Source of the DNA: Macrostomum lignano
Taxonomy: Eukaryota
Reading direction: 5' to 3'
DNA length: 64,000 nucleotides
Assembly (NCBI GenBank): GCA_002269645.1
Contig: NIVC01000067.1
Coordinates: 310,001 to 374,000, forward strand
Positions 20,934-56,913 of the stretch are shown one piece after another. The position numbers and the translations under genes are program-made. Below the pieces are notes generated by a model. That model did not search any database and was not told where the DNA came from. It was given only the letters and a program-made list of their open reading frames with translations. Each line of letters opens with the position of its first letter. The stretch's first letter is position 1.

Positions 20934-21002
20934 GTTGATCACTAGGCCTAGAAATTACGTCCCCATCGTTCTATCACATTTTATGAATTTTATGAACTCA
21001 AA

Positions 21003-22530
21003 TGACCGTTCACTGCTCATTTAATTTCCTGCATTGCTCAACAATTGCCTCATTGCCTAACCTTCAAATCATAATGAATGCTAACTTCACTTTGACATTG
21101 CTTCTATCAAACATCACCATGCACAAGACTTTCATCAAAAGTTTAAAATCTAAAAAAACAAAAAAATTACAAGTATTGCTTGCCTATTTTTCTTCAGCAC
21201 ATTCGCACTAAAATGACTGCTCACTGACTCAAGCTCTCTCATCTATATTTCCTCTCCTCTCCCCTGTCATCTCGCTCTCTTCTCACCCTCTCTTGTCGCT
21301 TCTCTCTTCTCTCCCCTACCATCATCCCTCTCATCCCTCTATCCCCTCTCCTCTCTACCATCCTCTCCTCTCTCCCCTTCTCCTCTCTCATCTCTCCTCT
21401 CCCTCTCCTCTCTCATTTCCTTTCTCCCTCCTTTCTCATCTTCCGGCCTCTCTCCATTCTCACCTATCCTCTCATCTCCTTTTTCATCTCCTTTCTCCCC
21501 TCTCCCTTTTTCTTTCTCTCTCATCTCCGCCTATCATCTCTCAGCTTGACTCTAATCTATTCGCTTTTCCCTTCTCTCTCCTCTCTCATCTCCCTTCTCC
21601 CCTCTCATCCGCTCTCTATCTCCTTTCTCACCTCTCACCTCTCATCTTCCCTCTTTATCTTTGCACTGTACTCAAAATTGAAAAAAAAAACAAAAAAATT
21701 ACAAGTACATGTATTGCTCGCCTATTTTGCTTCAGCACATTCGCACTAAAAATTACTGCACACTGATTGCTCATTAACTTTCATTTAATTTCCTGCATTG
21801 TTCAACAATTGCCTCATTGCCTAACCTGCACTCTCTATTTAAATCATAATGAATACTAACTCACTTTGACTTGTACATTGCTTCTATCAAACATCACCAT
21901 GCACAAGACTTTCATCAAAAGTTTAAAATCTAAAAAAAACAAAAAAATTACAAGTATTGCTTGCCTATTTTTCTTCAGCACATTCGCACTAAAATGACTG
22001 CTCACTGACTCAAGCTCTCTCATCTATATTTCCTCTCCTCTCCTCTCCTCAGCTGTCATCTCGCTCTCTTCTCACCCTCTTCTGTCGCTTCTCTCTTCTC
22101 TCCCTTATCATCTTCCCTCTCATCCCTCTATCCACTCTCCTCTCTACCATCCTTTCCTCTCTCCCCTTCTCCTCTCTCCTCTCCCTCTCCGCTCTCATTT
22201 CCTTTCTCATCTTCCCTATCTCCTCTCTCCAATCTCCCCTATCATCTCCCTTCTTCCCTCTCCTCTCTCATCTCCTTTTTCCCTCCTTTCTCATCTTCCG
22301 GCCTCTCTCCCTTCTCCATTCTGCCCTATCCTCTCACCCCTTTTTCATCTTCTTTCTTCCCTCTCCCTTCCTCTTTATTCTCTTTCATCTCCGCCTATCA
22401 TCTCTCAGCTCCCCTCTCCCATCTTTGCACTGTACTCAAAATTGAAAAACAAAAAAATTACAAGCATTGCTTGCCTATTTTGCTTCAGCACATTCGCACT
22501 AAAAATTACTGCATACTGACTGCTCATTAT
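21003..22530. repeat. ~770-bp imperfect tandem duplication with CT-rich cores
   Basis: TCATTTAATTTCCTGCATTG...GCACATTCGCACTAAAA block occurs twice (21.0 and 21.8 kb). Confidence 0.8.
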
Positions 22531-27840: not shown

Positions 27841-28244
27841 ATGTGGGGAGAAGCAGCCCGAGTGTTTCTGTGTTTGCTTAAATATAGCTAGCCGTAGAAA
27901 ATTCTAGAAAATTCCAGACTGTACAATCTTGGAGTCAAGCAGGGAAAACAATCGATATAGCTCAGTGTACGATAGAGCATGAGGCGTGTGAATGTGAGGG
28001 GTGAGACTTCTCTATAGACAAAGCATAGGGTGAGGAGGTGAGGAGCATGAAGGAGAAGCATGGTGGAACGAGAGATTGTAGCCGAAACCAGTGTGCTCAA
28101 GACTGTACACTTGTGTGGAGAAAAGCGAAGCGAAGGCCAAGGGGCCAGTTTGCGATAAAATTTGGCCTTACTCGAGGCCAAAATCCTTTGCGTTCTGGCC
28201 TTTTGGCCTTCGCTTCTTTTCGCTCCACACAAGTGGAGAGAGAA

Positions 28245-38267: not shown

Positions 38268-38664
38268 TCATTGTGCATTCCTCGTTGTACTTCTCGTTGT
38301 CCTTCTTTCCACATAATGTTGAAGAACTTTCTCGAGTTCATTTCTCAGCTGACTCATGTCATCAGTACCGACCATGTTCAAGTTCATTCGAATTGATTGT
38401 TCATAAAGATCCTGAATGGTTTTGAACTCATCCTCTGAAATGAACTTATCGTCTATTGCTCTTGAAATGTACCCTATGATTGATGTGTGCACCCCTTTCT
38501 CTTTTACTTGCTTCTCCTGTAGCTGCTTTAGTTTTTTTCGCCTGTTTCGCGCTAATGCTCCAGTAATTGCTGAAATAAGTCCACATGCAGCACCCACAGA
38601 GCCGAGCGGGATTGCGATTGGGGCTGTGATGACTGGCAACGTTGAGACAGCTGCAGCAGATCCA
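38268..38664 (-). pseudogene. two-helix membrane protein of Polinton 1, 5'-truncated by the Polinton 2 TIR
   Basis: Hydrophobic GSAAAVSTLPVITAPIAIPLG..GLISAI plus SRAIDDKFISEDEF; same family pattern as 39289-40029. Confidence 0.7.
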
Positions 38665-39246
38665 AGTAGTAGTATGTTATAAGGGGCTGCGCCACACTTA
38701 TCGCTCGGGCGCATTACGCGCCAGCTCGCTGGATGACTCAGCCCCTTATAACATACTACTACTACCAGGTGGTCATGGATTCAAGTGTGTGTGTGATAAA
38801 TATAAAAAAAAAATATATAAATATACATATATCTGTGCCTGAGGGTGTTGAGGGTGAGGGCATGTGGGGGGCATTGGCCTGTGGTATATTTCTCAGAAGA
38901 CAGAATTTCCGGATTTTTATACTTTTAAAAAGGGGGGGTGCCCTCGCCCTCATGCCCTCACTCATTTTGAAAATCACTAAAAATAACTGAAAAATGACTA
39001 AAAACAGGTGAAAATGGTCTGAAAACAGCGATTTTTTGTGATTTTCTATTTTTTTTTAAAAAGTGCAATTTTCACGATTCCAGCTCTAAAACCATGAGAA
39101 AGGTTGGATCCTCGGGTCAATTTAATGCAATTTCAGGTATATACAATATGAAAGTGTCATCCAATTCAACGATAGTAAATTTTATATATATAAAATGGCC
39201 TTCAGTAAACCATTATTTCTAGGAAATGCTTTAGATATTCAGTCAG
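38665..39246 (+). repeat. left TIR of Polinton 2 (582 bp)
   Basis: Inverse of 56348-56913; about 16 substitutions and 4 indels by eye. Confidence 0.95.
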
Positions 39247-39288
39247 GTATAGACATAATTGACAATTAGGCATAATCGCCATATAAAA

Positions 39289-40029
39289 ATGAATGATAAA
39301 AATGAACACATCTATCCTGTGGTTGAGCTGCATGAAGCAGATTTGAGGGAGCGGGACTATTTCAATCAGAGAAAGGGTGAAATCAAAGGCAGTATTGAAT
39401 GCATTACGAAAGATCTTACAATTTATAGCAAAAAGGTAAAAAAGTACAAACGACAAAGTAGCAGGATAAATTGGATCAACATTGTGACAGGAAATGTAAG
39501 TCTCTTGGCTGCTACAGGAATTGGCATAGCAACATCGATACTGACATTGAATCCCTTAGTTATTGGAGTAGTAATCGGGGCAATGAGTGGTTTTGAAGCT
39601 GTAAAATCCACGTCGTTGTTTGCAACTGTGAAAATTCATTGCCAAAAGCAGAAGGCAAAATACATTGTTCTCAGAGATCTGGCCAATAAATACAGAGAGA
39701 GATTATATATTTACTCCCAAAAAGCAGTTGATGATTATAGATTAACTCTTGAAGAGGTTCAAGCAGCTACTGCAATTTATTCAGAATACAGAGAGAAAAG
39801 AGATCAATTGTTAGACGCCGGTGTTGCGCCTGAAGAAGTTAACCATTCGGAAGTCGTTGATAAAATTCTCAAAGAGAGTAGACTTGGTCATTCAGCGAAG
39901 GAAAAAATTAAAAAGGAACTGCTGGAGAAAGATCTGAGAGAAAAATTGGGTCTAGCCGATAAGCCAAAAGAGTACTCGGCAACACTCAATCTTCAATCAA
40001 ATGCTCCAAGTGCACCTCCCTACAATTAA
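39289..40029 (+). CDS. two-helix membrane protein typical of Polintons/adintoviruses
   Basis: KKYKR then a hydrophobic hairpin, KAVDDYRLTLEEV; TAAAAATG start. Confidence 0.7.
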   Translation: MNDKNEHIYPVVELHEADLRERDYFNQRKGEIKGSIECITKDLTIYSKKVKKYKRQSSRINWINIVTGNVSLLAATGIGIATSILTLNPLVIGVVIGAMSGFEAVKSTSLFATVKIHCQKQKAKYIVLRDLANKYRERLYIYSQKAVDDYRLTLEEVQAATAIYSEYREKRDQLLDAGVAPEEVNHSEVVDKILKESRLGHSAKEKIKKELLEKDLREKLGLADKPKEYSATLNLQSNAPSAPPYN

Positions 40030-40054
40030 TATTGTATAATTTTTTTTCTAGAAA

Positions 40055-43000
40055 ATGGAAAGGAAAATACCAGCGGCCTCTTATGAATATGATCTCGACT
40101 CCGTTGAAGAAATTCGCGGTTTAATCTCCCCAATTCTTTCCGAATATTTGATGGCTAGAGATTCAATAAAATACAGAATTTCCTTTGTCGCAGAATTTTA
40201 TAAAGGAACTACCGACAGTTGGATTGAGTTCCAATATCATTCAAAGTATCGAACTTTGTTAAATCTTCTCCAAGTGGAAACTAGTATAGAAAGTACAATT
40301 CAGGATGTTCTGGATGAATTCGATGGATGGAAGGATAGTTTTAATGAAAGGGGATCAGGATATTATTTTGTTAAGTTAGTAAAGATTGTGTTGAAAGTTG
40401 TTGGCATTAATCAGTTGAAAGGAGGAACTTATATTCTAATTCCAATTAAATCAAACGCATTAGTAAATGTTAAGAACACTAAAGACAATAGGTGCTTTCT
40501 CTGGTCTATTTTAGCAAAGCTCCATCCTGTGAAGGAACATAGATATAGAGTTGGTAAGTATACACAGTATATAAATGAAATAAACTTAGGAGACGTTAAA
40601 TTTCCAGTGGACATTCGAGATATCTCTGAGATTGAAAAGTTGAACAGTCTTCATATAAATGTGTTTGGATTGAGGGATATAAATACTAAAGAGTCAATAT
40701 ATTCTATTCGTCTGACAGAAGATTACGACAACCCCAATGTTATTGATTTACTACTTGTTGAAAATCATTATTGCTTAATAACAGACTTGTGTTTATTCCT
40801 CACGTCCCAAAATTACAACAGGGTTTTTCTTTGTCGAAAGTGTCTTCAAGTCAAATACTCCCAGGATGCACTGGATAATCATAAAGCAATCTGTAATGAC
40901 TTCAAAGTGTCAATTGAAGTTCCAAAGATTGATAAGAGGATATTAAAGTTTAAAAACTACCACATGAGTGTAAGAAAACCATTTGTGTTTTATGCAATAT
41001 TAGATTATGTAACGATGGATGATAAATCACTAGAGCTATCACAATGGACACTTTTTACTAGTTCCGACTATGAGGACATTATAAAATCAAATATTATTTT
41101 AAATACTACAGTGGAATCATTCGTTGAAACCGTAATAAAAAAGTTTGAGCATATAAAAAATGAAATGGATAGATATAAACATCCAAGATTAAGTGATGTC
41201 GAAGAGACTGATTACAAAGCGGCAGAACAATGTTTTCTCTGCTCAAGGCCATTTGTAGATAGTAAAAAAATTCGAGAGCATAATCACTACAATGGTAAAT
41301 ATCGCGGCGCAGCATGTCAATCATGTAATACCAAGGAGGGCAAGGCGAATCAAACGGTACCGTTGTTTCTCCTGAATGAATCTGGAAAAGATCTAAACTA
41401 TTTGATAGTTCCATTAACACGAATAAAGAATACAGCTTATAAATTGGATTTCATTTCTAAAACATCGGAAGACCATGTTGCAATTAAGTGGGGGAATTAT
41501 ACCAGTGGTGTTGTGTTTTTAGATGGATCTAGGTTTTTGGAACCACCATTTACACTCTCTGAAGAAGAAATAAAATATTTGCCACCCAGTGATACAACAG
41601 CAGTAATTAGAAAGATTTACTCATTTGTCAACGCTTTTGAGAAGTTTCGATCAACATTTTTGAAATATTTCAAGATAGATCCTGCGTATTGCTTTTCCCT
41701 TTCTGGATTATCGTGGGCATGTGGGTTGAAATATACTAATGTGGAATTGGAATTACTTGGTGATAAAGAAATGATATCCATGGTAGAAAGTGGTATTCGC
41801 GGCGGTTTCTCTGGAGTTCTTGGAGATCGATATAAAAAAATGAATAACAAGTATTTAGAAAGTTATGACAGCAATTCTGAATCGTCGTACATGCTATACT
41901 TGGACAAGAATAATTTATATGGTGAAGCAATGATGAAAAATCTACCTGTGGGAGATTTCAAGTTTGAAAATGATCTAGAGTATCACAAGAATATTCCTAA
42001 TGGCAGGGGTTGTTTTCTTGAAGTTGACCTTGAATATACAGAGGAATGTAAGAAAGCTACAAGTAAATATCCACTGGCTCCTGAGAAACGAACAACTAGG
42101 TTTGAGGATTTATCTGATATACAGAAGCAATATCGAAGTCGAAAAGAAAAAGTTTGTTCAATCCAAGTTGATGTTGACATTTTACAACAAGGAGAAATAT
42201 GTTTTACATCACAGACTACTTGAGTTTTATGAGAAGATGGGCATGCGAGTATGAGAGTTCATAGAATTCTTTCATTCAAAGAGTCAAACTGGTTGAGTAA
42301 ATACATCGAATTTAATACCAGGCAGAGAATGGAAGCAAAAACTAAATTTGAGAAAGACCTGTGGAAACTACTGAACAATTCATTCTACGGTAAAACAATC
42401 GAAAATGTAAAGAATAGGTCGAACTTTCATCTTGTAGCTGAAGAAAAAACTGCAAGGCGTTATTTTTCCAAACCAAATTTCAAAGATTTCATTATGTTTA
42501 GTGAGGATGCAGTTGGTGTCCAAATGTACAAAAAGACAATTGCGTGTGACAAGCCAATTTATTTAGGAATGGCTATTCTGGATTATGCAAAAATGCTAAT
42601 GTACGATTGCTATTACAATTTTATTGAGAAGAATTGGAACAGCTGTCAATTGCACTATTCTGATTGTGATTCGCTAATATTCTCAGTGATTACTCAGGAT
42701 GTTTATAGGATCTTGAAAAAATTAAAGAACACTTAGACACATCGGATTATCCAAGAGAGCATCCACTATACTCCGAGACGAACAAGAAAGTTATTGGAAA
42801 GTTGAAAGATGAAATGAATGGCTCAATAATTTCCGAAGCTGTATTCCTGCGGTCAAAGGAGTATGCTTTCACTACAGTTTCAGGGGAGTGTGTTACGATC
42901 AAGGGGGTTGATAAAAGCAGTACAAATATAAATTTTGAAACTTTTAAAAACATACTATTGACAGATTACAAAGATATTCAAAGAGGTAGAGTAAGTATGA

Positions 43001-43119
43001 CTGTATCTGAAAAAAATAAAATATATATTCGTGAGATTATGAAACAAACAATGAGTCCGTTAGATGATAAAAGATATTATTTGGATCCTATCAGATCTAT
43101 TCCTCATCAGCCAATGTAA
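40055..43119 (+). pseudogene. polB: protein-primed PolB of Polinton 2, three frameshifts, degenerate exonuclease
   Basis: ERGSG, DNRCFLWS..HYCLI, LDKNNLYG, KLLNNSFYGK, YSDCDS, KVIGKLKDE; shifts near 42140, 42250, 42708. Confidence 0.92.
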
Positions 43120-43140
43120 TCTCATTGATAACATCTTCGT

Positions 43141-45602
43141 TTATTTTTTTACACAGTAAAACAGAACATTTCTAGTTTCTTGCTGTTTACCATCTATCCT
43201 ACGCCTATATCTATCCTTATAATACTTACAATAGTCATTGTGATTCTTGAAGAAATCTGTTATGTATTGTTGTTGGAATTCACGTTTCTCACGTTGGGCT
43301 AGAGTCCTATAGTATTCACTCTCTGTTGCGGCAGTGTAAATTTCTCTAATAAGCAAAAATGTTTTTTCCTCAGTTTCTAAAAATTCATAATTCTCTTCAA
43401 AGAAGTGAGCAAACCAATTACAATTCTGTATGAATTCATTAGTGTTTTCAATTACGCTTTTCGATCGATATATTTCACCCTTTGTTTGCTTGAAAATTTC
43501 TAGTAGGTGTTTCATCTCAGCAAACTTATATTTATTCTTAAACTCCTCGGTCTTAAGATATGAATCGGCTTTATAAATGTGTTTCGCATGATCAATGATG
43601 TCGGTATCTGTTGTATATTTACATGGGTAATTAATATTTATAATTCGTCTTTTTTCTGCATCTCCAATATTTTGTCTAAAGTCAGGCTTGTTATTACATT
43701 CGACTATTAGGGTTGCGTGTAAAACGACATTACACTGGCTTGAATATAAATTTCTAGCTTGGATAACCCCACCACCAGTTAGTAATTTTATTGATGCATT
43801 GTTCAAGACACCACTTACTTCTTGACTGATAACCAACCTCTTTTTATTAATTTGTGCTAGGGCTGGTTGTGGCCTGTCTATTCTTATTGGTAAATTCAAA
43901 ACATCAGGACTCAGTGGTGCTGCATAATCAGATCCTAGAGTTCTAAGAAGTAGGTTGTCCTCAACCCCTTGCCATTTCCACCAGCGCCATCAAACATTAT
44001 AAAGTTTTCAACATTCTTACCCATTAGAGCTGTGGCTATAACGGATTCCCAACTTTTTCTATTTTCTGGATCGGGATGAATTTGGTTATGCAGATTAACA
44101 ATGAAGCCATAGTCGTAATCACTCACTCCAAGTACATCCGAGTAATTATATCCCACCGATTTAGTAACGTAATCGTCATATCTATACTCGCGAAACTCAC
44201 CTGTAAGGAGGTCGTATACTCCATCGTTAAACCCTAGCAAATTCCATTTCATGTCGAATTCAATTTCATTGTTAGTAAACCTCTCTTTGAACAAAGTAGT
44301 TACCTGTTTGAGTTTGTTGGCTCCTTGTATTGAATTTATATTCTTTATTGTACTCTGTAGTTTCTTTTCAAGTGCTTTTAACTTCTCTTTATCATCAGCC
44401 GCCTTCTTAATTGCAATTTCGAGTCTAGTCTTTCGGTGGTTTAACTCACTGCTAACAAGTTCTGATATTTTAAGAAATATGTCATTTATACTACTTAGTT
44501 CTCTCCACTTATCATCATCAAAATAGTAAATACCATCGCTATTGTAAATTATATTATTCTTCTTATATTCATAAACAAAGTTGGTTATGTTAACGTCAGT
44601 GAAATTATCATCAAGATACTCAATCCTACCATAGTAATCATATTTGCTTTTCCATTCCTTATATTTACAATAATTTTCTTCACTAGCCCATTTCTTCAAC
44701 GTACCGATAGTAAGTCTGTCCTGTGCATCAGCAGAGCTGGTATTGGTGCTATTCCACACATTTTTACATGCCTCGGAATCGAACTTATCATAATTTACTT
44801 TTGACCAATCAGTGAATACTTTGTACATTTCATCACCACTGTCTATGTCGCGGAGTATAAGTGCAACCTTGTACCAAGAATCATAGTCTTGGTTTTTGTG
44901 TTGTATTATACTTAACAACTTTGAAACTCCTTCACAACTGGGTGATGGAACGGTGCTTTTTAGTGCCTGTTTATCTTGTTCTTGGATTTCATTTTTATCC
45001 TGTCGCTTTATTAATCTATTTATCTCATCAAGAATTACATCTGGCATGTCTATAAGTCCCTCGCACTTTGTACGTTTGTATTCCTTCATTTCACCATCCA
45101 CATAATAGAAACCTGGTGGAGCAAATACTAAGCGGAATATCAAAACCCACACTTTGTTGAATCGTTACTTTCAATCCATCTACTTTGTTAAAGTAAAAGT
45201 GGTGTCCCTTGTTTGTCTGAACAACCCAATCACAATGAGTCATACACAGTTCATTCAACTCAGGGCATAGGTCAGCATTATCAATATCGATTACGGTTAT
45301 ATTTGAGTTTCTAGTATCTATCCAAATCATGTTGTCTACCTCTGGTCGAAATGGTGGGAGGTTGAATTCCTATCTGCTTTGTTTGGCATTCCTGACGGTA
45401 TTTTTTTCTTTGTTTTACTATTCCATGTTACACTGCAACTTCCGAATTTAAAATTAAGTTCTCCATAGAGATTAATTAGTTTATCGTACGATTTTGTTTG
45501 TTTTAAATTTGTCAATCTTGGTGGTGGGGCATCATGTTTTTGAAGCGGATCCTGTACGATCACAGGAGAGAAACTTGAATCGTTTTGATTTTTTCTTTCC
45601 AT
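43141..45602 (-). pseudogene. Prim-Pol primase + PriCT-2 + D5-like SF3 helicase, three frameshifts
   Basis: VIDID, TNKGHHFYF, YDSWYKVAL..WSK, GAGGNGKG Walker A, VISQE, ECNNKP; shifts near 45355, 45130, 43965. Confidence 0.88.
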
Positions 45603-45618
45603 TTTATTTAAAATAAAT

Positions 45619-45960
45619 TTAACAATATAATTCATCAGTTTCAATGTACTTCTCAAGGGTTATGGGGAGTTTGAAAATGTTCAACTTAAGCATGACGAAA
45701 AATTCATCATTCCTTATGTGCTGTCTTGAAATCAATGCCCATTTATCAACATGTGCAAGATATACTCTGAATGAATACAAATAAGGGGGGCATTTACAAT
45801 CGGTGTGTTTTAATATTTCTGCTTTATATTCATCGTAAGCTTTATCAATTTCTTCAATTAGTCGAGCCTTTCGAGTGGGTGTTTTTATTTGAGAGAAATT
45901 TATAATAGAATCATAATACTTTTGTGGCAGTGCATTTCGTACATTTGGGTTAGCTTCCAT
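45619..45960 (-). CDS. hypothetical protein
   Basis: 113-aa ORF with GAAAAATG start in a gene-dense block. Confidence 0.55.
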   Translation of the reverse strand: MEANPNVRNALPQKYYDSIINFSQIKTPTRKARLIEEIDKAYDEYKAEILKHTDCKCPPYLYSFRVYLAHVDKWALISRQHIRNDEFFVMLKLNIFKLPITLEKYIETDELYC

Positions 45961-46435
45961 TTTTCTATGAAAAATTTAACATTTTTGCTTTCTTTTGGGC
46001 AAATTTCTATAGATAATCCAACTTTAGCATTTTCTGTGTATCATTATACTTTGTCTTCTTAATTTTTCGCTACTTTTGCGCCTACTTCATTGGCAGCTTT
46101 TTTATTATTGACTGTCTTTGCGATTCCGGCTGCACCTGCCTGTCTTATGAGAGGTAGATTGTCTTTTAGTAAGTTGGAATGGTGCTTCTAGTATCAAAAT
46201 ACCTCTCCATTGTACTCTAGGGCTCACCTATTGTATACTCTCTTAGCTTGCGTGGATCTGTAACGGGGCACATTTTTGTCTATTTTTAGAAACAGAAAAA
46301 TAAACACAGGAACAGAAAGACTTTCAGACACCAAAGGCCAAACTCCATTGGGCTAAATGTGGCCTGCTCAAAGCGGTGATATATTTGTTTAAATTATTAC
46401 CTTAATAAATGTTTGATATCAAATCATGTTGATAA

Positions 46436-46750
46436 TTATGGCGCATTAGATGGTTCTATATCAGCGCGGCATGTTGGGCACCTAACCATGTTGCCCTCTT
46501 GAATTCCAGTGCGATAACATATTTCACAAACTACAGCTCGACAACATGCCATGGTAACGTTTGGTGGCCGTGGTTCGTGTTGGCAGATTGGACAAAGCCC
46601 TTGATTATTCCCCGGCTGAGCTGGATGGTTCTGTACTTGAGTCGGGTTATCCTCTGGTTGAATATCAGCTAGTTGGTGCTCCATATCTTGGCGATAAGCA
46701 ACCAAGCGCCTCTCTGCTTCTTGAACGCGACGTTTTTGAAGATAGTAGTT
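46436..46750 (-). CDS. RING finger protein (Polinton 2)
   Basis: CPIC..MACCRAVVCEIC..CPTCR; the frame is open upstream to ~46750, start uncertain. Confidence 0.7.
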   Translation of the reverse strand, partial: NYYLQKRRVQEAERRLVAYRQDMEHQLADIQPEDNPTQVQNHPAQPGNNQGLCPICQHEPRPPNVTMACCRAVVCEICYRTGIQEGNMVRCPTCRADIEPSNAP

Positions 46751-46819
46751 CTAGGAAAGGGTTTGGTGCGCTCGTATATGATTTTTGTAAACTAAAACCT
46801 TATAATGTAAAAACACTTT

Positions 46820-47011
46820 TTAACTAACCTTTAGCTGATTAAAGAAGCGCTCTTCATTAGCCAAATTTTGTGGGTTATACTCCAAAAAGATGTTGATGGC
46901 AATATCTCTAAACATTGAGTTCCTATGGTGTTGTCGCAAATTTCGCTCTCGAATTCTAAGAGTTGCTCTAGCGGCAGTAAGCCTCTCGTGCAAATTCGAG
47001 AAAGAAGGCAT
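46820..47011 (-). CDS. hypothetical protein, possibly the N-terminus of the RING gene
   Basis: ATG-started 63-aa ORF upstream on the same strand. Confidence 0.4.
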   Translation of the reverse strand: MPSFSNLHERLTAARATLRIRERNLRQHHRNSMFRDIAINIFLEYNPQNLANEERFFNQLKVS

Positions 47012-47227
47012 TGTAGGAATGATAATTTGTAAGAAGGTAAAGTTAGTAGAGAAAAATTACTAGACCTTGCCGCTCGTGGCCATTCATTTATATATTTTTA
47101 TGACAAAACGTCAGACCCCGCATTCCATTCAGACCAAAACACGAGACCAATTTTTATCTTTTTATTTTTCGAAATTTTCTTCTCGCGTTTTGGTCTCGCG
47201 TTTTGGTCTGAATGGAATGCATGACTC

Positions 47228-47708
47228 AGTGTAGCAAGAGTATAAGATAAAAAATATAAAACCCCGAATTCCTGTGTTAGTCATCGAGTGAAGTTTGCCT
47301 ACTTGCTTTGCTATCTTGGTCGGACAATAGCCGACCATATTGTTGCGGTGCGAGCTTGCTTCTGTGTAGCAAGAGTAGATGAAAAATATAAAACCCCGAA
47401 TTCCTGTGTTAGTCATCGAGTGAAGTTTGCCTACTTGCTTTACTATCTTGGTCGGACAATAGCCGACCATATTGTTGCGGTGCGAGCTTGCTTCTGTGTA
47501 GCAAGAGTATAAGATAAAAAATATACAACCCCGAATTCCTGCGTTACTCATTGAGTAAAGTTTGCCTACTTGCTTTGCTACGGTGGTTGGACAATAGCCG
47601 ACCATATTATTGCTCTGCGAGATTGCTTCTGTGTGTAGCAAAAGTAGATGAAAAATATACAACCCCGAATTCCTGCGTTAGTCACTGAGTGAAGTTTGCC
47701 TACTTGCC
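47228..47708. repeat. ~133-bp direct repeat, ~3.6 copies, intergenic in Polinton 2
   Basis: ACCCCGAATT at 47261, 47393, 47528, 47662. Confidence 0.9.
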
Positions 47709-47802
47709 AGCTTCCTAAGATAGTAATTTTTTGTTTATTGACCCCGTTGGGAGTTTTTGTACTTATGTTGTGTTTTTATGGTGACTATGGTATTATGTCT
47801 AA

Positions 47803-49181
47803 TTATGTGACAATTATGTCTAAAATCGGATAAAGTTGAAAGCCTGAAACAATAAGAACAGTTGATCCTTCAGTGGCTGAATTAATATGCACTCTATAAC
47901 CGGAGAATTTTTCGGTGGAAGCTACTTCAAAATATTTCATCACTCCAGGAACTAAACCAGCATTTTCGGTAGAAAAAATATTCCTAAAGTCTCTCTTGTT
48001 ATTGCTCCCTTTCAGAATAAAACTTTTTGGTTGATTTTTTATAATTTCACTACCTACTGCTTTGGTTCCTTTCAATCCGAATTTCCAAATTTGAATAGAT
48101 TCAGGAAGTTGTACTTCAATGTAAGAATTGGGTTCATTCCTCGATGCCCATTCTGAATTAGATACTATATAACCCCAATTATCTGACGTTTCAAATGCTC
48201 CTGATGACGCTACATTGAAACCCCTTTCTCTATAGTTTTGACGTGTTGCTAGTGAGGGAATATATCCTGTATAAGATTTGAAACCTAGTCCCCGCCTTAG
48301 TCGCAGCTCCACTGATTCAAGTGCATTGTCTACGTATAGCTTTGGTACAGCTTGAAGTCTATCTATAGGCCACACTAAATCATTAACCACTGTTTGTCTC
48401 TCAAGTAATTCAACTTTTGTAAGCTTTACGGAACCAGAAAAATTAAGAGAATAATGGAAATAATATGAGGGTTTGGGTATTTTTTTCCTAAGATGTGCAT
48501 TGCCCCTTCGTAGTTCAATGGGTGCACTTTGTTCAACAGGTGTCCAGTTTGTTCCATTTAGGCTCACACTAACAGACCAACCAGGCCACACCTCTCCTTC
48601 CAACTTTATCTCTACAACTTTCCTAGCTCTTTTCAAAATTGAAATCGTATCCACTTGTCTGAGTCATCTGCACTGCTCCATTCTGAAGCTGGGTTTGAAT
48701 CTGCAACATGATATGCTGCTGAAGAGTTATGAGAAGCGGTCACTTTCATGTCAGGATGGGAAGCGTTTGAAGTCAGTAATGAAAGAATATTGACTAATTT
48801 CGAACTCTCTGTACCTCCCGCAGTACCTTGCCTTTCTGCTAACAAAGTGTCAATCTCAGTTTTAGAATACATCTTAGTGTCAATTTCGGTTTTAGAATAC
48901 ATCTTAGTGTCAGTTTCGGTTTTTGTGTAGACATTGTTTACGCGCCCATGAGCATCGTCAATTAATTGTAGCATGGTGATATTCATTGCGTCACTATCTT
49001 CCTTTGAATAAGAGTCTGAAACATTTCTCTTTGCTAACAATAAATTATCTATTTCCTCTCTCTTATATCCTTCATTTTCATTGATGTATCGATCATCAGC
49101 TAACGCTATTGTTATTCCAGGTGCTATATCATTTGAATTTGACGAGTAACCAAATTGATTAGCAGTATTCTTGTAACTCAT
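47803..49181 (-). CDS. fibre/spike-like protein with YxKxEID repeats and discoidin (F5/8 type C)-like domains; one frameshift at ~48635
   Basis: YSKTEID repeats; EWSS..KWIRFQF; EWAS..SYIEVQLP..QPKSFILKGSN..FSGYRVHI. Confidence 0.65.
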
Positions 49182-49609
49182 TTTAATTGCTGCAAAATTT
49201 CATTATAGCTATCTCCTTTATCGATTCGATGTAAAAAGTACAGCGACATTTGACCACAAAATTTCTTATCTAAAGTTTGAATTTGTTCTTCCATGTCTCC
49301 ACATATTCTATTCTTTGTGTGATTAAACTTTTCCATAATTTCCAGTGTGGGCGGTAGTGCATAGGAATCAAAAAAATAAACCTTATCATGAGCTGAAAAG
49401 ATAGCTGAATGATGTATACCCCGTTCTTTCGAAGTGTGAATATTTGTCATAAAGTAACCATACTGTGGTAAATCAACAATTTCATCTCTCATGGCATAGC
49501 GAAATGGTTTTAACTTGAGATATTTTGCCCAATTTATCAGATCAATATTAGTCGTAGTGTCAGTCCCAAACTTTTGTTTAAATGCATTCCATGTCTCAGC
49601 TTCGCTCAT
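49178..49609 (-). CDS. adenain-like cysteine protease (Polinton 2)
   Basis: GIHHSA, FFDSY, QIQTLDKKFCG. Confidence 0.88.
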   Translation of the reverse strand: MSEAETWNAFKQKFGTDTTTNIDLINWAKYLKLKPFRYAMRDEIVDLPQYGYFMTNIHTSKERGIHHSAIFSAHDKVYFFDSYALPPTLEIMEKFNHTKNRICGDMEEQIQTLDKKFCGQMSLYFLHRIDKGDSYNEILQQLK

Positions 49610-49618
49610 TTTTAACAC

Positions 49619-50410
49619 TCATATTTGTCGTACGTGTAGATTTATAAATATTTCCTCGCCATCAAAGTCGTATAGAACACCAGACTCATCTTCGATGACA
49701 AAGTCGAATGTGCTCAACATGTTTGTAGTTAGTGGTAGGTACACAGGATTTGCAGGCTCTTGAATAATTTTACTTCCCATTGGGACAGAGAACGATGGAA
49801 TTGAAAGAAGTATTTGCTTATCAATTAAATGATTTCCATTGGCTGGATCAGTGATAAAACCCCCTTTGATATTGAGACAACGAACCATGATCGCACTTCT
49901 AGCTCCGTCTATCCGAGCTGGATTTGGAGCTCTCTCAAATGGTTTCAAATACACTTCCGAATTGAATCCCAACAGTCTTCTAAAGTTATTGGAATGTGCA
50001 TCCCTGAAATCAACTTGATACTCTGTGGCTAACCGTAACTCAACCCTACGCGTGTCTAGGCTTGCACTGAAAACAATAGCCCCCTCTTTCCAATCATTTG
50101 CAGCTGTTAGCAATCTTTGAATCTCGCTTGACAGACTTTTAACTTCCCAAGATCCTGCTTGAATCTTTATTTTCTTCCATGTTCTACCACTATCCCTCGA
50201 GTATCGCAACTCATTATTGCCTCCTTCAATATTGTTAATAGCATCAAAGACTGCAAACTTTTTTATACCAGCTTCGTATTCTCGATCTTCATACAAATTT
50301 ATCGGAGTGCCTAGAGTTTGTCGAAATGGGTTTTTAATTGAAAAGAAGTCAAATGTGCGTTGAAACTTTTTACTCAAGAGGATGTTGACTTTTTCTATTT
50401 CTTTTTCCAT
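49619..50410 (-). CDS. minor capsid protein (penton, single jelly-roll)
   Basis: LLGF, GSKIIQEPANPVYLP, IEDESGVLYDFDGE motifs; position in the structural block. Confidence 0.8.
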   Translation of the reverse strand: MEKEIEKVNILLSKKFQRTFDFFSIKNPFRQTLGTPINLYEDREYEAGIKKFAVFDAINNIEGGNNELRYSRDSGRTWKKIKIQAGSWEVKSLSSEIQRLLTAANDWKEGAIVFSASLDTRRVELRLATEYQVDFRDAHSNNFRRLLGFNSEVYLKPFERAPNPARIDGARSAIMVRCLNIKGGFITDPANGNHLIDKQILLSIPSFSVPMGSKIIQEPANPVYLPLTTNMLSTFDFVIEDESGVLYDFDGEEIFINLHVRQI

Positions 50411-50412
50411 TT

Positions 50413-51143
50413 TTAAGCAAGTAATTCTACTAGCTCTTTATCAACATTGTTATGTCCCTCTGCTTTTGCGGCTAGTAATGTCAACACTCTTTCACTGAGT
50501 CCAGATCCCGGTTTTACTCGATATCCTGGTGGATTATCTTTCAATATCCTTACTGCTTGCTTATAATTCCCACTTGATTTGGCCGCTGGATTTTTACAGT
50601 GTTCAATGAGGTTAACATAATCCTGCAATGTTTGCATCTTGAATTGCTTCAGCTCTTCACCATTTTCAGTTACTTTAGGCATTTTGAACAACTCTTCAAG
50701 ATCTTCAGAAAATGGCATTCGGAATTCGTTGACAATGATGTCCGACCTTGTTCATGGAATTCAACCTCTATTACAGATGATCCAAATATATATCCAGCAT
50801 CAGTTTTTTGAATCCGTATACTAGGCGCTGGTCTTTGAGTTATTGGAATCTTTCCAATTTCTTCAATTATTTTGTCAAATACTTCCAGAGGTTCAAATCG
50901 TCCTTTTGGTGTACTTAATTGCGGAACTGGAACTTTTTGATTCTGAAGTTTATCAACAAGGTTGGCATTGAAATCAATAAATTCATCAAGCTTTTCTGTG
51001 ACAGGTTTTTGAGCTAATGGAGCCACTCTTGCATATAAACTCTCTTCTCCAATTTTCAAATAGCGTTGAGCATCATTTCTGGATTTGTACGTTTCTCGCT
51101 GCTTTGCTAAATTAATGAGTTCTCTTATATATTCATTAGTCAT
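50413..51143 (-). pseudogene. conserved Polinton protein of unknown function, one frameshift at ~50740
   Basis: C-terminal GSGL..LTLLAAKAEGHNN motif; two ORFs join with one added base. Confidence 0.6.
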
Positions 51144-51145
51144 TT

Positions 51146-51919
51146 TTACAATGGGATTTTAGTTAGAACATCCTTATACAAATCTTGCTCATCCTCATCA
51201 GCTCTTGTATTTATATAGATATAGCCATACTTCTTTTTCCAAGCCTCTCTACATTTAGCCTTGAATATAGCGGGTTCATAATTCGTTTCTATATTTCTAG
51301 CAATGTGATTTAAGTTTGTATCTTTTTGTTTAAAGATTATGTAACATGTCGTATTCTCCCTGACAGTATTGCGATCTAGTTTGGTAAAATTTTGAGCTAG
51401 ATAAAAACCACAACAGTTTCCATGCCTGCCTCTCTGAAACAGACTTTCCTGAAATGTTTGATTAGCCTCTCCCAAAACATCGTCCAATATCACACATGTC
51501 TTTAGTCCATTATGAAAAATTTCTTCATTTGGAGTATGGGAAAGAGTGACAGGAATTTTCTCTATTACTTCTGAATTTTCTGATGTGCTTTGCACTCGAC
51601 CAGGGTTGGCTGCCTCTCGACAAATATGTCTAATATCTTCAGGAGATGCATCCTCACTCACCTGGTAGACATGATAGAGTGAGTTGATAAGAGAAGGTGG
51701 GAGACCATTTTCAAAGCCATATTTTAGAAACTGATACTCTGGATCCATTTGAGATGCTCTGGGAACATATAAAACTAACTCATTAAAGTCAACTAGTTTT
51801 TCAGGACTTGTAAGAATATGGAATAGTAAATATGTTTTACCCGTATTTGTAGCGCCGATAATACAACATAAAAGAGGATTAGGGAAAATAGGATCATGCT
51901 GAAATTTTACTTTGGGCAT
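51146..51919 (-). CDS. A32/FtsK-like DNA packaging ATPase
   Basis: GATNTGKT Walker A, VILDD Walker B, RGRHGNC..LAQ. Confidence 0.92.
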   Translation of the reverse strand: MPKVKFQHDPIFPNPLLCCIIGATNTGKTYLLFHILTSPEKLVDFNELVLYVPRASQMDPEYQFLKYGFENGLPPSLINSLYHVYQVSEDASPEDIRHICREAANPGRVQSTSENSEVIEKIPVTLSHTPNEEIFHNGLKTCVILDDVLGEANQTFQESLFQRGRHGNCCGFYLAQNFTKLDRNTVRENTTCYIIFKQKDTNLNHIARNIETNYEPAIFKAKCREAWKKKYGYIYINTRADEDEQDLYKDVLTKIPL

Positions 51920-51940
51920 TTAAAAAAAGAAAAAATGACC

Positions 51941-53305
51941 TTATTCGACGCGGGTCATTTGATATTCACTGGTAACTTTTATTACATTCTTTGTTTGTTC
52001 AAGAATTAGTGCAAAAGCAGTCAGCTCAACATTTGTTGACTTCTTGATAAATAATTGAATATTCACTCCACTCTTGACCAGAAACTCATCTTGAGCTGTT
52101 AGATCAAAGCAAAAGATTGGATAGATGGTTAGAAAGTCTTGTTTATTGAATGGAGGAGTTACACCGAAACGGCTGCAGATGTCTTCGTACATTTCATACG
52201 CTCTGTGAATGTCTTGAGCTACTGGATCAATTTCAACATAATCATTCGGATACATCACCTGATTTAATCTGACTTGAAGCTGGGTTATTTTCACTGCATT
52301 TGCTCCAGTTTTGTAAGACACATACTTGTGATCATTAACTATATATGATGGGTTGTTTACGTCATATTTGAAAGCTACAAAGATTGCAAGTGGCATATTG
52401 GAGATGTTGGCTATGTTCCATGTATATGGACTTCCTTGAATGAGTTGTGGTGGAACCGTTACCCTCTCTGGAAATGATACTGTAATGTCCTTGTTGAGTG
52501 ATTTTAGAAAAGCTGCTTCAGCACTGGGTGACAAAGTAATAGCAGGGATCCAAATCTCAAAGCTATTAATAGTTAACTTAGCTTCCGTCCCGGCAGCTCC
52601 AAAGAAAATTTCAGCATCGTTAGTCTTTCTTGTCCATGTGAATTTATATTTAATTCCTTTGCTAATCTTCTGCCAATCAAGGAACCCAATGAGAGGTGTT
52701 AATGATAGTTTGATTGTTCCACCTCTGTTTGGAGCATTAGTGACATTGTTATAATTTTCAAGCCTCCTAATGTATCCAGTATTCGAATCCTTCTTATTGA
52801 GTCTATTTTTCATAGCGATTGCTGCAGTTCTCACAGCTTCAGCATCTGCGTTGTTTGCTAGAGGTATATCAGAAACAGTCCCAGCATCTCCAGTGTCTGG
52901 AATCCATCCGTATGCTTCTCCAACTTCATTCATTAATTTTGAGTACATTACGGACTTTAAGATTGTGTCATACTCTCCAGGATCATTATAGACTTTCTTT
53001 GTTCCTCCAATGTCAACTATGAGTTGAGAGAAAAGTCTCATAGGCCAATTATGTTCTAGAGTAATGTTCGTATTCAAGTCGGTGTTATCTCGTTGTGTTA
53101 TTGAGTATTTTATACAACCGAATGCCTCTGACATGAGAATGTATGACTCTGTTGAATTGACTTCATGAACTATTTGACCTCCTGCAACATTGAGATTATT
53201 AGTGCTACCTGGAGTTGGAGAAATCTTAATATAGTCTTCTTTCTTTTTGAAAAAGCTAAAAGTTTTGTCCTCATATATGCTCAGTATATCCTTTTTGTTC
53301 TCCAT
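51941..53305 (-). CDS. major capsid protein (double jelly-roll)
   Basis: 454-aa beta-rich ORF, LQVRLNQVMYP and YPIFCFDLT motifs, next to ATPase and penton. Confidence 0.8.
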   Translation of the reverse strand: MENKKDILSIYEDKTFSFFKKKEDYIKISPTPGSTNNLNVAGGQIVHEVNSTESYILMSEAFGCIKYSITQRDNTDLNTNITLEHNWPMRLFSQLIVDIGGTKKVYNDPGEYDTILKSVMYSKLMNEVGEAYGWIPDTGDAGTVSDIPLANNADAEAVRTAAIAMKNRLNKKDSNTGYIRRLENYNNVTNAPNRGGTIKLSLTPLIGFLDWQKISKGIKYKFTWTRKTNDAEIFFGAAGTEAKLTINSFEIWIPAITLSPSAEAAFLKSLNKDITVSFPERVTVPPQLIQGSPYTWNIANISNMPLAIFVAFKYDVNNPSYIVNDHKYVSYKTGANAVKITQLQVRLNQVMYPNDYVEIDPVAQDIHRAYEMYEDICSRFGVTPPFNKQDFLTIYPIFCFDLTAQDEFLVKSGVNIQLFIKKSTNVELTAFALILEQTKNVIKVTSEYQMTRVE

Positions 53306-53325
53306 TTTTATAAGAGAAATTTCAA

Positions 53326-53778
53326 CTAAGCTTCATGAGGTCTAAGAATTATCCCATTACCCTGTTTCTCCTTTTCAACTTTAAAAGTCTTTAGCAGCCA
53401 CTTGACTGCTTCGCTGGGTACTTGTTCGACTCTTTTAGCCGCATCAACTAATACTCCACTCCCTTGAGCCTTTTTCAACTCTTCTAGTTTTTGCCGTTCA
53501 ATGCTTTCTATTGTCTTATTATGTTTAGCATTGTTGGCTGTATTAACACTTTTTGCAATCATTGTACCAACTCCTGAGGCTGCTCCGATACCACCCAAAA
53601 TTGCTGGTAGTAAGCCTAATAGAGGAATTATTCCACCTTCATGTTCTTTCTGTTTCTCTTGCAATTCTCGAATCTTCTCTTTAGAAAGATATTGCTTTTG
53701 CTTATTTACAGTAACATATCTTGGTTTTCCCTCTCGAACATATCGATTGAGTCTTGCTTCAGTGTTTTTCTCGCTCAT
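53326..53778 (-). CDS. core/membrane-active precursor-like protein
   Basis: EGG|IIPLLGLLPAILGGIGAASG; QGSG and QGNG sites. Confidence 0.6.
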   Translation of the reverse strand: MSEKNTEARLNRYVREGKPRYVTVNKQKQYLSKEKIRELQEKQKEHEGGIIPLLGLLPAILGGIGAASGVGTMIAKSVNTANNAKHNKTIESIERQKLEELKKAQGSGVLVDAAKRVEQVPSEAVKWLLKTFKVEKEKQGNGIILRPHEA

Positions 53779-53786
53779 TTTTAAGG

Positions 53787-54209
53787 TCAGAATTTCTTCA
53801 AACCATTGCCTTGTCTCAAAGACACTTGAGACTGTTCTGCTGTTCCTAGAGCCTTTTTAACAATATCTTGAATAGCCTTATTTGATTGAGAAGCTATCTG
53901 TTGCTCTTCTTCCATTCTTTTCTTTGCTTCTTTATCTCTACGTTTCTTTTTAATATATTCCAGTTCCTCACCTGCTTTAGACATGTCACTGTATGATTTC
54001 TTCGCATCGAATATGTTCTTCGCTGTGGTAGCTGTTTTACCTATTGCATCAGCTCCACTCACAATTTTACTTCCATGATTTGATAAAAAGTTTGTGACAC
54101 CACTGATCATATCACCAATTCCTTCACCCTCTTTATCAGCTAGTAGTTGTGAATCAGACGTTTCAATCTGACCTTTCGCCCGTTTGCAGTTTGTTCGATA
54201 GGCGCTCAT
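53787..54209 (-). CDS. core protein with a pVI-like amphipathic helix
   Basis: GEG|IGDMISGVTNFLS helix, basic C-terminal half, QGNG site. Confidence 0.55.
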   Translation of the reverse strand: MSAYRTNCKRAKGQIETSDSQLLADKEGEGIGDMISGVTNFLSNHGSKIVSGADAIGKTATTAKNIFDAKKSYSDMSKAGEELEYIKKKRRDKEAKKRMEEEQQIASQSNKAIQDIVKKALGTAEQSQVSLRQGNGLKKF

Positions 54210-55436
54210 TTTTAGTTGAAAAATTTGCTGGTAGAAGCTGGGATTTGTAAAATGATCCAATGATTTCTTCTCCATTCTCATCCTCAATAATGTAGGTTAT
54301 GGGATTGGAGTAAACTATTTTCTTTATCCTAAACACTTCTGAAATTTTCCAATATCCTCTTCGACCCTTTTCAAAGTGCTCCTTATATCTATAGATATGA
54401 ACTTTGTCACCTACTTTGAAGTTTGGTTTCTCATTTGAATACTCGAAAGTTGGCTTTGGTACTCGCTCAGGATGTTTAGATGCTTCTGAAGGAGTTATCA
54501 GAATCTCAGAATGGATTGTGTTGTTGTATTTTTCAACAATAGCTGGCAATGTGTGGAGCCACTTCTGATTACCCTGTAGATCAAATTCAAACCAGAGTTT
54601 ATTTGTGAGAGTACGATTGAACCTCTCAATCATTGCATTCTTGGACTCGCCATAAATTGAAAACATCTTGTTAATATATTCACCCTTTCATCCTTCTTTC
54701 TAATGTTGTCTTTTGAAAACGAGTATAGCTTGTACATATGCTGATTATAAAACTCCTTGCCTTCATCTACACAAAGTCTCTCTGATCGTCTTCCTGATTC
54801 CTTAAATACTTTTTGGAAAGCTTCTGCAACTTCCGCTCCCGTCTTTGTTTTCAAAGGAACTGCCCAGGCGTAACGTGTAAAACCATCTATGATAGTTAGA
54901 GCATATTTGTAACCTCTTTCGGGCGGTAGGATAATGATATCTGCATGCCAAATTGTGTCTTTTGCATAGTGAATCATTTTTCTAAATACTCTTGGCTTTC
55001 GATATTCTTTATGCAATTTTACTGCATCTTCATAGCTAAGACCCTTACCATAAATTGTTAGACAGTCAATACAATTGTTGGGGTTGTGAGTATGAATGCC
55101 TAATCCAAACCGAACTTTAGCCTTGATAATACGCTTTACTAGATTTCGAATGAGTCTCTCTTTCACAGACAAGTCACTGGTTGGAATAGCATCTAAATCA
55201 GCTATCATTTTTTCATCAGCTATATGCTTCTTTGCTAGAGCTTCCTCTGGATTTGAAGAAGTGTTTTCAGCATCTCTATAGTTTTTGTCATGATAGTAAG
55301 CAGTCCAATCGATTGGGTTAATTGGTAGACTGTCATACCGAGGCCGGTCTGTAATTGGATTGAGTCTCTTGTCTAAATTTGTACCCGGCAGTTGTTCCTC
55401 AATCTTTCGAAAGAGGCTGGACTTTATCTTAAGGCT
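54163..55436 (-). pseudogene. int: PLA2-like domain fused in frame to an rve integrase; frameshift at ~54685
   Basis: PGTNLDKRL..NPIDWTAYYHDKNY..ADEKM, then WHADI, IDGFTRY, VDEGKEF, IERFNRTL. Confidence 0.85.
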
Positions 55437-55503
55437 TCATCAGGATTGACCAGATCCTTCAGCCCCACCCCCATTAAGTCTCTGAACCTTCTCCATATCC
55501 TTG

Positions 55504-56189
55504 TCAACTTCGTTCGGACTTAGGAGCTTGGCTGCGGATTTCCACCATGTCCTCAAGCTTGTTACCATCGAACCATAGGTTCGCGGACGAAGTCCGATTG
55601 GGAACAGGAATTACCTGTGTTCCTTCAGAAGATTTCTCAACTGAAGTGGTACTTGAGGCTGTTATTGACGTACTAGAATCGGACGGAGTTCCCGCAATTT
55701 GAAGGTGTCGCCAATCACTAAGCACTTGTTTAATGTTGGTTATAATGTTTTTGTATTGATCACCATAAAGAAATTTCAATGCAAATTCTCCTGTTATAAG
55801 GGTGATTCCATTGTCTAGTAAAATATTCTTAGGTTCCTTTGTAGTTTTATTGATGCATACATAATACAACTGATAGATGGGATAAGAATTTTTATAGTCT
55901 AATAGTTTCTGATAATTCCTTTCACGACTTGATGAATGTCCGTGTTATCAGAAGATTTAAGCTCTAATGCAATCTTTCGCTCAACGTGAACCAGGTCAAT
56001 CTTTTTTACCTTCTCGAATCCAAAATAATTTTCTGCTAATATTTCATATAGTCTGCCTAGTCTCATTTGAATAACTTTAATCTTGTGTGAAATTATTAAC
56101 TCTTCTTGGAAAAGATCATGAAGAATTTGATCATGCCCAACCTTATCATCAATTGGTTTCAGAAGAATTTCTCGAATTGTTTGCTCCAT
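55504..56189 (-). pseudogene. PD-(D/E)xK restriction-endonuclease-like protein, one frameshift at ~55936
   Basis: QMRLGRLYE..IDL..ELKSSDNTD(N)SSSRERNYQKL when one A is restored. Confidence 0.65.
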
Positions 56190-56347
56190 TTTTACTATAG
56201 AAACTTTAACAAGTGCTTATTTGATGACTAGCAAGGACATTGACTTCCTCACTCAGGCCACTACGTAACCTGCAAAAGAATACCCTGGAATATGAAGTTC
56301 TCCTGGGTATTTTCCAGTGGCGAAGATGGGTGGTAGTTTTGTTATAG

Positions 56348-56913
56348 CTGACTGAATATCTAAAGCATTTCCTAGAAATAATGGTTTACTGAAGGCCATT
56401 TTATATATATAAAATTTACTATCGTTGAATTGGATGACACTTTCATATTGTATATACCTGAAATTGCATTAAATTGACCCGTGAATCCAACTTTTCTCAT
56501 GGTTTTAGAGCTGGAATCGTGAAAATTGCACTTTTTAAAAAAATTAGAAAATCACAAAAAATCGCTGTTTTCAGACCATTTTCACCTGTTTTTAGTCATT
56601 TTTCACTTATTTTTAGTGATTTTCAAAATGAGTGAGGGCATGAGGGCGAGGGCACCCCCCCTTTTTAAAAGTATAAAAATTCCGGAAAATCTGTGTTCGG
56701 TGAAATATTCCACAGGCCAATGCCCCCCACATGCCCTCACCCTCAACACCCTCACTCACAGATATATGTATATTTACATATCACACACCCACTTGAATCC
56801 ATGACCTCCTGGTAGTAGTAGTATGTTATAAGGGGCTGAGTCATCCAGCGAGCTGGCGCGCAATGCGCCCGAGCAATTAAGTGTGGCGCAGCCCCTTATA
56901 ACATACTACTACT
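56348..56913 (-). repeat. right TIR of Polinton 2 (566 bp)
   Basis: Inverse of 38665-39246. Confidence 0.95.

Follow-up and report, generated by a model that had tools for sequence, protein, structure and literature searches.

The Polinton and its insertion site

The window, i.e., the whole 64-kb stretch of Macrostomum lignano DNA that was analysed, contains a Polinton of 18,249 bp at positions 38665-56913; its genes and terminal features are presented in Table 1. The ends of Polintons follow an AG...CT rule. The window element conforms to this rule, it carries the DNA polymerase B that is primed by protein (pPolB), RVE integrase, ATPase and double jelly-roll capsid that define the Polinton/Maverick group, and its size and TIRs fall within the published ranges of 13-25 kb and 100-1500 bp (PMC10748475). 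The target-site duplication (TSD) of 5-8 bp that also belongs to the definition is absent here and present in G002:C9, an element with hairpin tips described below.

The first ORF of the polymerase has kept the terminal-protein/vOTU region and an endonuclease-VII-like insert, and its ExoI motif is degenerate (the domain layout is taken from the accessible part of PMC11161782). The three polymerase ORFs show 24-42% local identity to intact pPolB. The element thus has both a pPolB and a primase-helicase remnant. In this it resembles the two-replicase virophages in the accessible part of a preprint on Halocafeteria (bioRxiv 10.64898/2026.07.28.741278), and its polymerase (40055-42223) forms a long branch. 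No HUH/Rep nickase family of Pfam was found among the 17 element ORFs scanned (ORFs of at least 100 aa).

The insertion point at 38664/38665, within a gene of another element (Polinton 1), is exact as judged from empty-site contigs in all four public runs and from other flanks in run X6. Since the Polinton 1 gene runs on with other letters past 38664 in these contigs, 38665 must be the true tip. There is no TSD; the left flank reads GATCCA and the right flank GACAGT. The right flank is not the continuation of the empty site found in the contigs. An assembly join, recombination between copies or a deletion that came later is the likely cause of both this mismatch and the missing TSD. A Polinton next to a Polinton was also seen elsewhere, as G002:C9 lies outside another element's AC-type tip at a distance of 8 nt (G002:C9 282-291). 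It is possible that Polintons target other Polintons.

Table 1. Coordinates and properties of the features of the window element, followed by hairpin-tipped Polintons from other sources.
Feature	Position	Strand	Remarks
Polinton 1 gene, cut at 38664 by the window element	38268..38664	-	continuation absent from right flank
Left terminal fold-back, 99 nt	38665..38763	.	arms 38665-38689 (+) and 38739-38763 (-), 49-nt loop
Left TIR	38665..39251	+	~587 bp, fold-back included
Central 5-bp GGCGC/GCGCC stem, rod apex	38708..38722	.	left-end pairing probability 0.91-0.96; centre at position 51 of 99
TGACTCA (AP-1 consensus)	38734..38740	+	present, probably incidental
pPolB, broken	40055..43119	+	ORFs 40055-42223, 42251-42736, 42814-43119
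Primase-helicase remnant, broken	43935..45089	-	PriCT-2 PF08707 E 4.7e-12; D5_N PF08706 E 1.7e-13; further pieces adjacent
Packaging ATPase	51146..51919	-	Pox_A32 (PF04665) E 6.9e-6
Double jelly-roll capsid	51941..53305	-	PF21738 E 1.9e-13; 100% identity to NCBI Macrostomum lignano protein
Retroviral-type integrase, two ORFs	54163..55208	-	rve E 1.6e-10, rve_3 E 0.008
Right TIR	56343..56913	-	~571 bp
Right terminal fold-back, 100 nt	56814..56913	.	arms 56814-56838 (+) and 56889-56913 (-), 50-nt loop; outside-to-inside orientation as in the left one
G002:C9	291-15427		complete, with the 6-bp TSD TAGGAA; 174-nt fold-back at each tip, arms perfect over 28 bp and with a single mismatch over ~69 bp
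G002:C67			159-nt fold-back at each tip, the tip carrying AC repeats
G005:C28			286-nt fold-back at one tip, arms perfect over 29 bp
L266			129-nt fold-back at one tip, arms perfect over 19 bp; lies 150 nt ahead of intact polymerase

The terminal fold-backs

The first-pass annotation reported a perfect 25-nt inverted repeat within each end of the element, and this is confirmed. A search of the 64-kb window found exactly four exact copies of AGTAGTAGTATGTTATAAGGGGCTG with no mismatches, two at each end, and 100 shuffles gave no match. The tips of the element are therefore fold-backs of 99 and 100 nt with perfect 25-bp arms, and both make up the outermost bases of their TIRs. The two fold-backs differ at three places in the loop and at none in the arms. 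In the rest of the TIR about 4% of positions differ; that the arms have no changes is by itself not significant, as only about two would be expected in 50 positions. Folding of all four single strands gave -32 to -35 kcal/mol with z-scores of -8.4 to -9.8, and none of 200 shuffled strands was as stable as the real ones.

A T or Y shape, which had been proposed from GC palindromes in the loop, is not what the folding predicts. Both palindromes are present as letters. The GGCGC/GCGCC stem pairs with a probability of 0.62-0.96 over the strands, and since it sits at the centre of the big stem the hairpin is a rod; the CCAG/CTGG arm pairs at only 0.003-0.05. When 2000 structures were sampled for each strand, 61-87% had a single hairpin loop. 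The loop has no more structure than its shuffles (of 500 loop shuffles, a fraction of 0.16-0.47 was at least as stable). The AP-1 site pointed out in the loop does exist, but 12 such heptamers occur in the window and none of eight other terminal hairpins carries one. A short apex resembling GC-(A/C)TT-GC, often with flanking GCTCG repeats, was noticed in the window element, C9, C67, C265, C50 and L266 and lies in the same outside-to-inside direction in unrelated hairpins; C28 is without it, and the motif was picked post hoc.

Other folded sequences were seen in the window. Small fold-backs with perfect arms of 20-21 bp lie at 47120-47220, inside the Polinton, and at 2285-2476, one of them MITE-like. 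An imperfect rod hairpin of 130 nt (28107-28236, about -50 kcal/mol) is found 9 nt off the end of a phospholipase-like ORF of Polinton 1 and may be a tip or subterminal structure of that element; a candidate Polinton 1 tip, AGTAGCAGT at 27823, has no fold-back. A fold-back element of 900 bp with near-perfect arms of about 330 bp lies at 58454-59373, and a piece of its end is present at 56967-57041, 53 nt past the right tip of the Polinton.

Copies in Macrostomum contigs

Contigs of four public runs (of 15 listed) were aligned to positions 38400-39299, which gave 959 contigs. The hairpin is covered in the three runs of organism A, with a summed depth of 4,652-6,311 in X9, 13,456-21,311 in X1 and 58-109 in X6; these figures are not copy numbers. 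One of the loop differences is carried by 15 different contigs in X9 and by 20 in X1. The hairpin is thus a multi-copy end feature within the species. In run X8 of organism B, a second species, contigs cover the TIR body and none lies on the hairpin; such contigs are informative on presence, not on absence.

Two diverged copies with 12 differences each cover the whole hairpin and have foreign flanks. One of them (X6 record 10) continues into the TIR body in the orientation of the window element. In the other (X9 record 29) the hairpin is followed on either side by letters that do not align, 69 on one side and 63 on the other; it may represent a solo copy or a diverged subfamily. Among the rows listed, all three differences between M. 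lignano copies inside the hairpin fall in the loop.

The first-pass annotation also suggested that the tip might be released as a solo element of 100 bp. Every hairpin with readable flanks has the body of the element on one side, and no solo hairpin with host DNA on both sides was found among the loci read, which lends this suggestion no support; X9 record 29 is ambiguous in this respect. Joints at which the strand changes were absent among those listed for the 959 contigs, a weak result because a masked repeat begins 21 nt into the hairpin and rare forms are lost from contigs. Nor did the contigs, which are unable to reveal such molecules, show a free, hairpin-closed or dimer form.

Fold-backs in other Polintons

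A survey of Polinton termini had been proposed as a check. A search by polymerase alignment found 28 viral loci and 68 loci in genome bins, most of which stop short of the end of the element. The census of tips comprises seven families with a resolved tip, drawn from the alignment loci and 20 further contigs; ends of G005:C2 and G004:C217 were excluded. The genome bins (G001-G005) are prokaryote bins which contain eukaryotic contigs with Polintons, with 145 polymerase matches in G003.

The fold-back recurs: it is found in four of the seven pPolB Polinton families, with lengths of 129-286 nt (Table 1). Four more hairpin ends, beside C9 and in G003:C265, G003:C441 and G002:C50, came from pattern scans and from searches led by hairpins or C9 genes and are not part of this count. 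The remaining three families have no fold-back, the longest arms being 5 nt in G004:C156, 5 nt in L228 and 3 nt in G003 family A (three right ends), so the structure is dispensable for Polintons in general. The tips of L259 and L246, which are defined by motif only, also lack it. In the window element and eight others the terminal AGT (or AC) tip is repeated in inverted form 100-290 nt inside the end, always in the same orientation. In the window ends, C9, C67, C28, L266, C265 and the AC-type end beside C9, the pairing is perfect out to the terminal base. Past the hairpin the TIR extends for only about 50-70 bp in C9 and C67.

A tree of 41 polymerases, built with FastTree, places the elements with hairpin tips at several positions among hairpin-less ones. 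The tree carries long-branch warnings for the window polymerase and was read solely as showing that the hairpin-tipped elements are not one close clade. The polymerases of C9 and C28 belong to a distant group with 23-29% identity to the window ORF or to L266. The complete C9 has a pPolB and gave no D5 match with Pfam or tblastn; a VSR-like domain in its polymerase, suspected by eye, was not confirmed by Pfam.

A scan of IMG/VR for AGTAGTAGT..ACTACTACT with a gap of 65-95 gave 102 loci, one of which (L053) has a perfect arm of at least 25 bp; it was dropped as a hairpin-tipped element, being at a contig end beside an ORF which we take to resemble an RNA-phage maturation protein. With a gap of 30-60 there were at least 121 loci, and the longest perfect arm among the matches listed was 16. 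The tip-apex-tip pattern had no match in IMG/VR, alignment of the window capsid to IMG/VR gave no relatives, and alignment of the C9/C28 polymerases gave one weak locus with no fold-back listed there. A metagenome scan with a 19-nt arm pattern gave two single matches without a partner arm, which were taken as chance. Of the wide-gap tip patterns, each run on five genomes, one gave no match and another gave two, one of them previously known.

Some further observations concern these contigs. The TIR of L228 has at its tip (15842-15852) the palindrome AGTAG-C-CTACT of 11 nt, which amounts to the tip duplication in minimal form. C47, C401 and C435 of G003 are one Polinton family, and their left ends all appear about 7-10 nt short compared with the right-end tip. 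Inverted duplications of 1.8-3.7 kb were seen in C606, C493, C315, C106 and C426 of G003, several of them over polymerase genes; these are head-to-head rearrangements or assembly artefacts.

Covariation and orientation

Four AC-type ends from three elements could be aligned over 37 pairs, and 99.3% of the 148 cells are paired. Nine pairs have changed on both sides and none on one side only; none of 500 shuffles scored as high, which because the sequences are related cannot be turned into a probability. All five AC-type ends, which come from four diverged elements, have a bulged G on the inner arm following pair 19, and GCTCG near the apex is invariant in these ends. Between C9 and C441 there are two clean two-sided changes in 39 aligned pairs, the remainder being blurred by small indels; C441 alone folds as a rod. 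The compensatory pairs and the invariant bulge together suggest that the structure is selected. Copying from arm to arm is an unlikely source of the two-sided changes, as it would erase the bulge, yet the bulge is kept. We consider it highly probable that the hairpin is a selected structure.

The orientation of the hairpin is the same in 5/5 AC-type, 3/3 C9-type and 3/3 M. lignano ends, a small sample with which rare inversions would be compatible. Five comparisons between elements, with the two ends of an element counted once, all show one orientation, the chance of which is 1/32 if inversion were 50:50. Only the apex bases (6-8 nt) vary, being locally inverted in C441 and AAA in C50. The AAV-like flip/flop which had been anticipated is therefore not seen in any comparable end, and no strand-switch joint is listed among the 959 contigs.

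A self-priming model

The fold-back is a recurring end structure in a subset of Polintons and is likely to form a rod hairpin on single-stranded copies. How Polintons replicate has, to our knowledge, not been demonstrated; replication is usually pictured as protein-primed on a panhandle formed by the two TIRs. Since pairing within one end would compete with this panhandle, synthesis in Polintons with hairpin tips must either begin in another way or depend on an origin that is rebuilt locally.

The model that we tentatively prefer, while giving it somewhat less than an even chance, postulates that the 3' end primes its own synthesis and that the hairpin is reopened, without inversion, by nicking next to the terminal CT on its inner side's far end, i.e. 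following that CT. Once a single strand has been excised or displaced, the arm at its 3' terminus would pair with the inner arm to the last base, and this local pairing would be faster than formation of a panhandle between ends 18 kb apart. The polymerase would extend the folded 3'-OH and displace the 5' hairpin to give a duplex closed at one end. As the stem resembles an ordinary end of the element, the integrase would be expected to make its nick at the base of the stem, following the terminal CT, which would free the original 3'-OH for strand transfer; the model assumes that a retroviral-type integrase can nick a tip still joined to long DNA. Gap repair by the host would copy the opened hairpin and restore the end in its old orientation, and hence there would be no flip/flop. 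Priming by terminal protein at open ends would probably go on in parallel. A dumbbell closed at both ends was rejected as intermediate; it would invert one end, contrary to the fixed orientation.

Self-priming had been suggested in the first-pass annotation. It has become plausible because the fold-back is multi-copy, recurrent and covarying; the priming itself is a prediction, with hairpin priming established for AAV according to the accessible part of PMC1131931. It should be noted that in the window element and the hairpin-tipped L266 the AGT slide-back repeats and the terminal-protein/vOTU region, Cys motif included, have been kept, and that these features fit protein priming equally well.

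A broader formulation, which we regard as rather doubtful, is that many Polintons, those of animals included, pass through a hairpin-telomere cycle in which the terminal fold-back self-primes and is reopened without inversion by the integrase or by a nuclease within the polymerase, acting at the conserved bulge. If it were true, the cycle would be a working intermediate between the protein-primed ends of adenovirus and PRD1 and the covalently closed hairpins of poxviruses and other large DNA viruses. The latter viruses are thought to derive from Polinton-like ancestors.

Alternative models

The main rival hypothesizes that the fold-back rebuilds a short duplex origin at the 3' end of the displaced strand for priming by terminal protein, or that it shields this end as the folded telomeres of Streptomyces do; no pairing of distant ends is needed. 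We hold this to be rather unlikely, though it deserves to be taken seriously. It would explain why the terminal-protein/vOTU region and the AGT repeats are kept, why the outer 19-29 bp are perfect while the loops are free to vary, and why so little TIR is left past the hairpin in C9 and C67; it predicts the lack of flip/flop with no need for a nick, and it has the precedent of Streptomyces (PMC4513846, accessible part). A fully paired 3'-OH beside a long template is, however, a ready primer, and extension of the Streptomyces fold-back does occur in vitro according to the same part of that paper. The ~70-bp arms of C9 and C67 exceed what an origin needs, and the Halocafeteria palindromes are found preferentially with replicases other than pPolB, as far as the accessible part of the preprint goes (bioRxiv 10.64898/2026.07.28.741278). 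A model in which the structure acts as duplex, the inner copy being a second site for the integrase or an origin protein, or a cruciform cut at excision or concatemer resolution, possibly by a nuclease domain inside pPolB, appears improbable. The inner copy does repeat the exact tip, the window and L266 polymerases have the endonuclease-VII-like insert, and inserts of the HNH and VSR kinds have been described for polymerases of Polintons (PMC10748475); but the hairpin-less C156 and L228 carry the same endonuclease-VII-like insert, and two-sided changes over 37-70 bp with a fixed bulge favour intrastrand pairing over a short binding site.

The fold-back could also be a by-product of occasional tip duplication by template switching or fold-back repair, with mismatch repair or arm copying keeping the arms alike and selection playing no part. 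The patchy distribution on the polymerase tree and the three families without a fold-back agree with this, arm copying can yield two-sided changes, and accidental annealing is the alternative named in the accessible part of the Halocafeteria preprint (bioRxiv 10.64898/2026.07.28.741278). The bulge kept in 5/5 ends has already weakened this explanation, and so do the conserved apex motif and the fact that the fold-back invariably reaches the last base; we find it quite improbable. The least probable of all, and very remote in our judgement, is a T hairpin of the AAV type that undergoes terminal resolution and flip/flop, or a mini-element of 100 bp that can be released. The paired 3' end resembles that of parvoviruses, GCTC repeats close to the apex are reminiscent of the GNGC Rep-binding repeat of AAV (PMC1131931, accessible part), the apex of C441 is locally inverted and that of C50 is AAA, and X9 record 29 has unaligned letters on both sides of a whole hairpin. 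Against these stand the folding, which does not support T arms, the fixed orientation of the whole hairpin (~1/32), the absence of HUH/Rep families in the 17 element ORFs scanned and of strand-switch joints among those listed, and, for the mini-element, the finding that no hairpin among the loci read is flanked by host DNA on both sides.

Comparison with known systems

The window element shares with Polinton/Mavericks the pPolB, RVE integrase, ATPase and capsid genes, TIRs of several hundred bp and short tandem tip repeats. It differs in that this copy has no TSD and that its polymerase, helicase and integrase genes are broken. Kapitonov and Jurka reportedly proposed a racket (panhandle) model of Polinton replication in 2006; at variance with that model the window tip can pair within its own end and not with the opposite TIR.

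The resemblance to the ITR of parvoviruses and AAV lies in a terminal fold-back of about 100 nt with a fully paired 3' end which could prime; the T arms, the flip/flop and the Rep/HUH nickase described in the accessible part of PMC1131931 were not found in the window element, which is integrase-bearing and has a double jelly-roll capsid. The telomeres of Streptomyces are likewise ends of a protein-primed linear replicon in which the terminal sequence pairs with an inner complement, but they form a clover-leaf of several palindromes, are patched by Tap/Tpg after internal initiation and do not integrate (PMC4513846, accessible part). Bidnaviruses have a Polinton-derived pPolB and GTGTGTGT tips like those of the AC-type family here, and the accessible part of PMC4061559 states that their ends do not form parvovirus-like hairpins.

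The closest relatives are the terminal palindromes in endogenous virophages (subtypes 1, 2, 5 and 6) and the PLV subtype 4 of Halocafeteria seosinensis, for which hairpin priming was proposed by analogy with parvoviruses and poxviruses (bioRxiv 10.64898/2026.07.28.741278, 2026, accessible part). In both cases the palindrome is in the TIR next to the host junction and an RVE integrase is present. The Halocafeteria palindrome is 52 nt long, was screened with a gap of at most 10 nt, and occurs in a protist host preferentially with non-pPolB replicases, whereas the ends described here are rods of 99-286 nt with loops or bulges in true pPolB Polintons, one of them from an animal; here it is the AGT or AC slide-back tip that is duplicated, and covariation and a fixed orientation are shown. 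The first-pass annotation knew of no description of such ends for Polintons. This has to be narrowed, since palindromes beside the TSD and the idea of parvovirus-like priming are in the accessible part of that preprint; for animal pPolB Polintons our literature search found no earlier report. The main texts of Starrett 2021, Jeong 2023 (PMC10748475) and the cryptophyte PLV paper do not contain 'hairpin' or 'palindrom', and other texts searched use these words only in unrelated senses; Kapitonov and Jurka 2006, Pritham 2007, Repbase and supplements were outside the scope of the search, and an earlier mention there is possible.

We thus describe a Polinton whose end structure is, in kind, one already reported from virophages of a protist; in pPolB Polintons it recurs and covaries without flip/flop. 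A feature of protist virophages is thereby extended to both of the major polymerase groups sampled among pPolB Polintons, and it bears on the origin of hairpin telomeres in large DNA viruses. The fold-backs are short, defined substrates for priming and integrase cutting in vitro, and hairpin ends would have clear long-read signatures in their fixed orientation, closed ends and head-to-head junctions.
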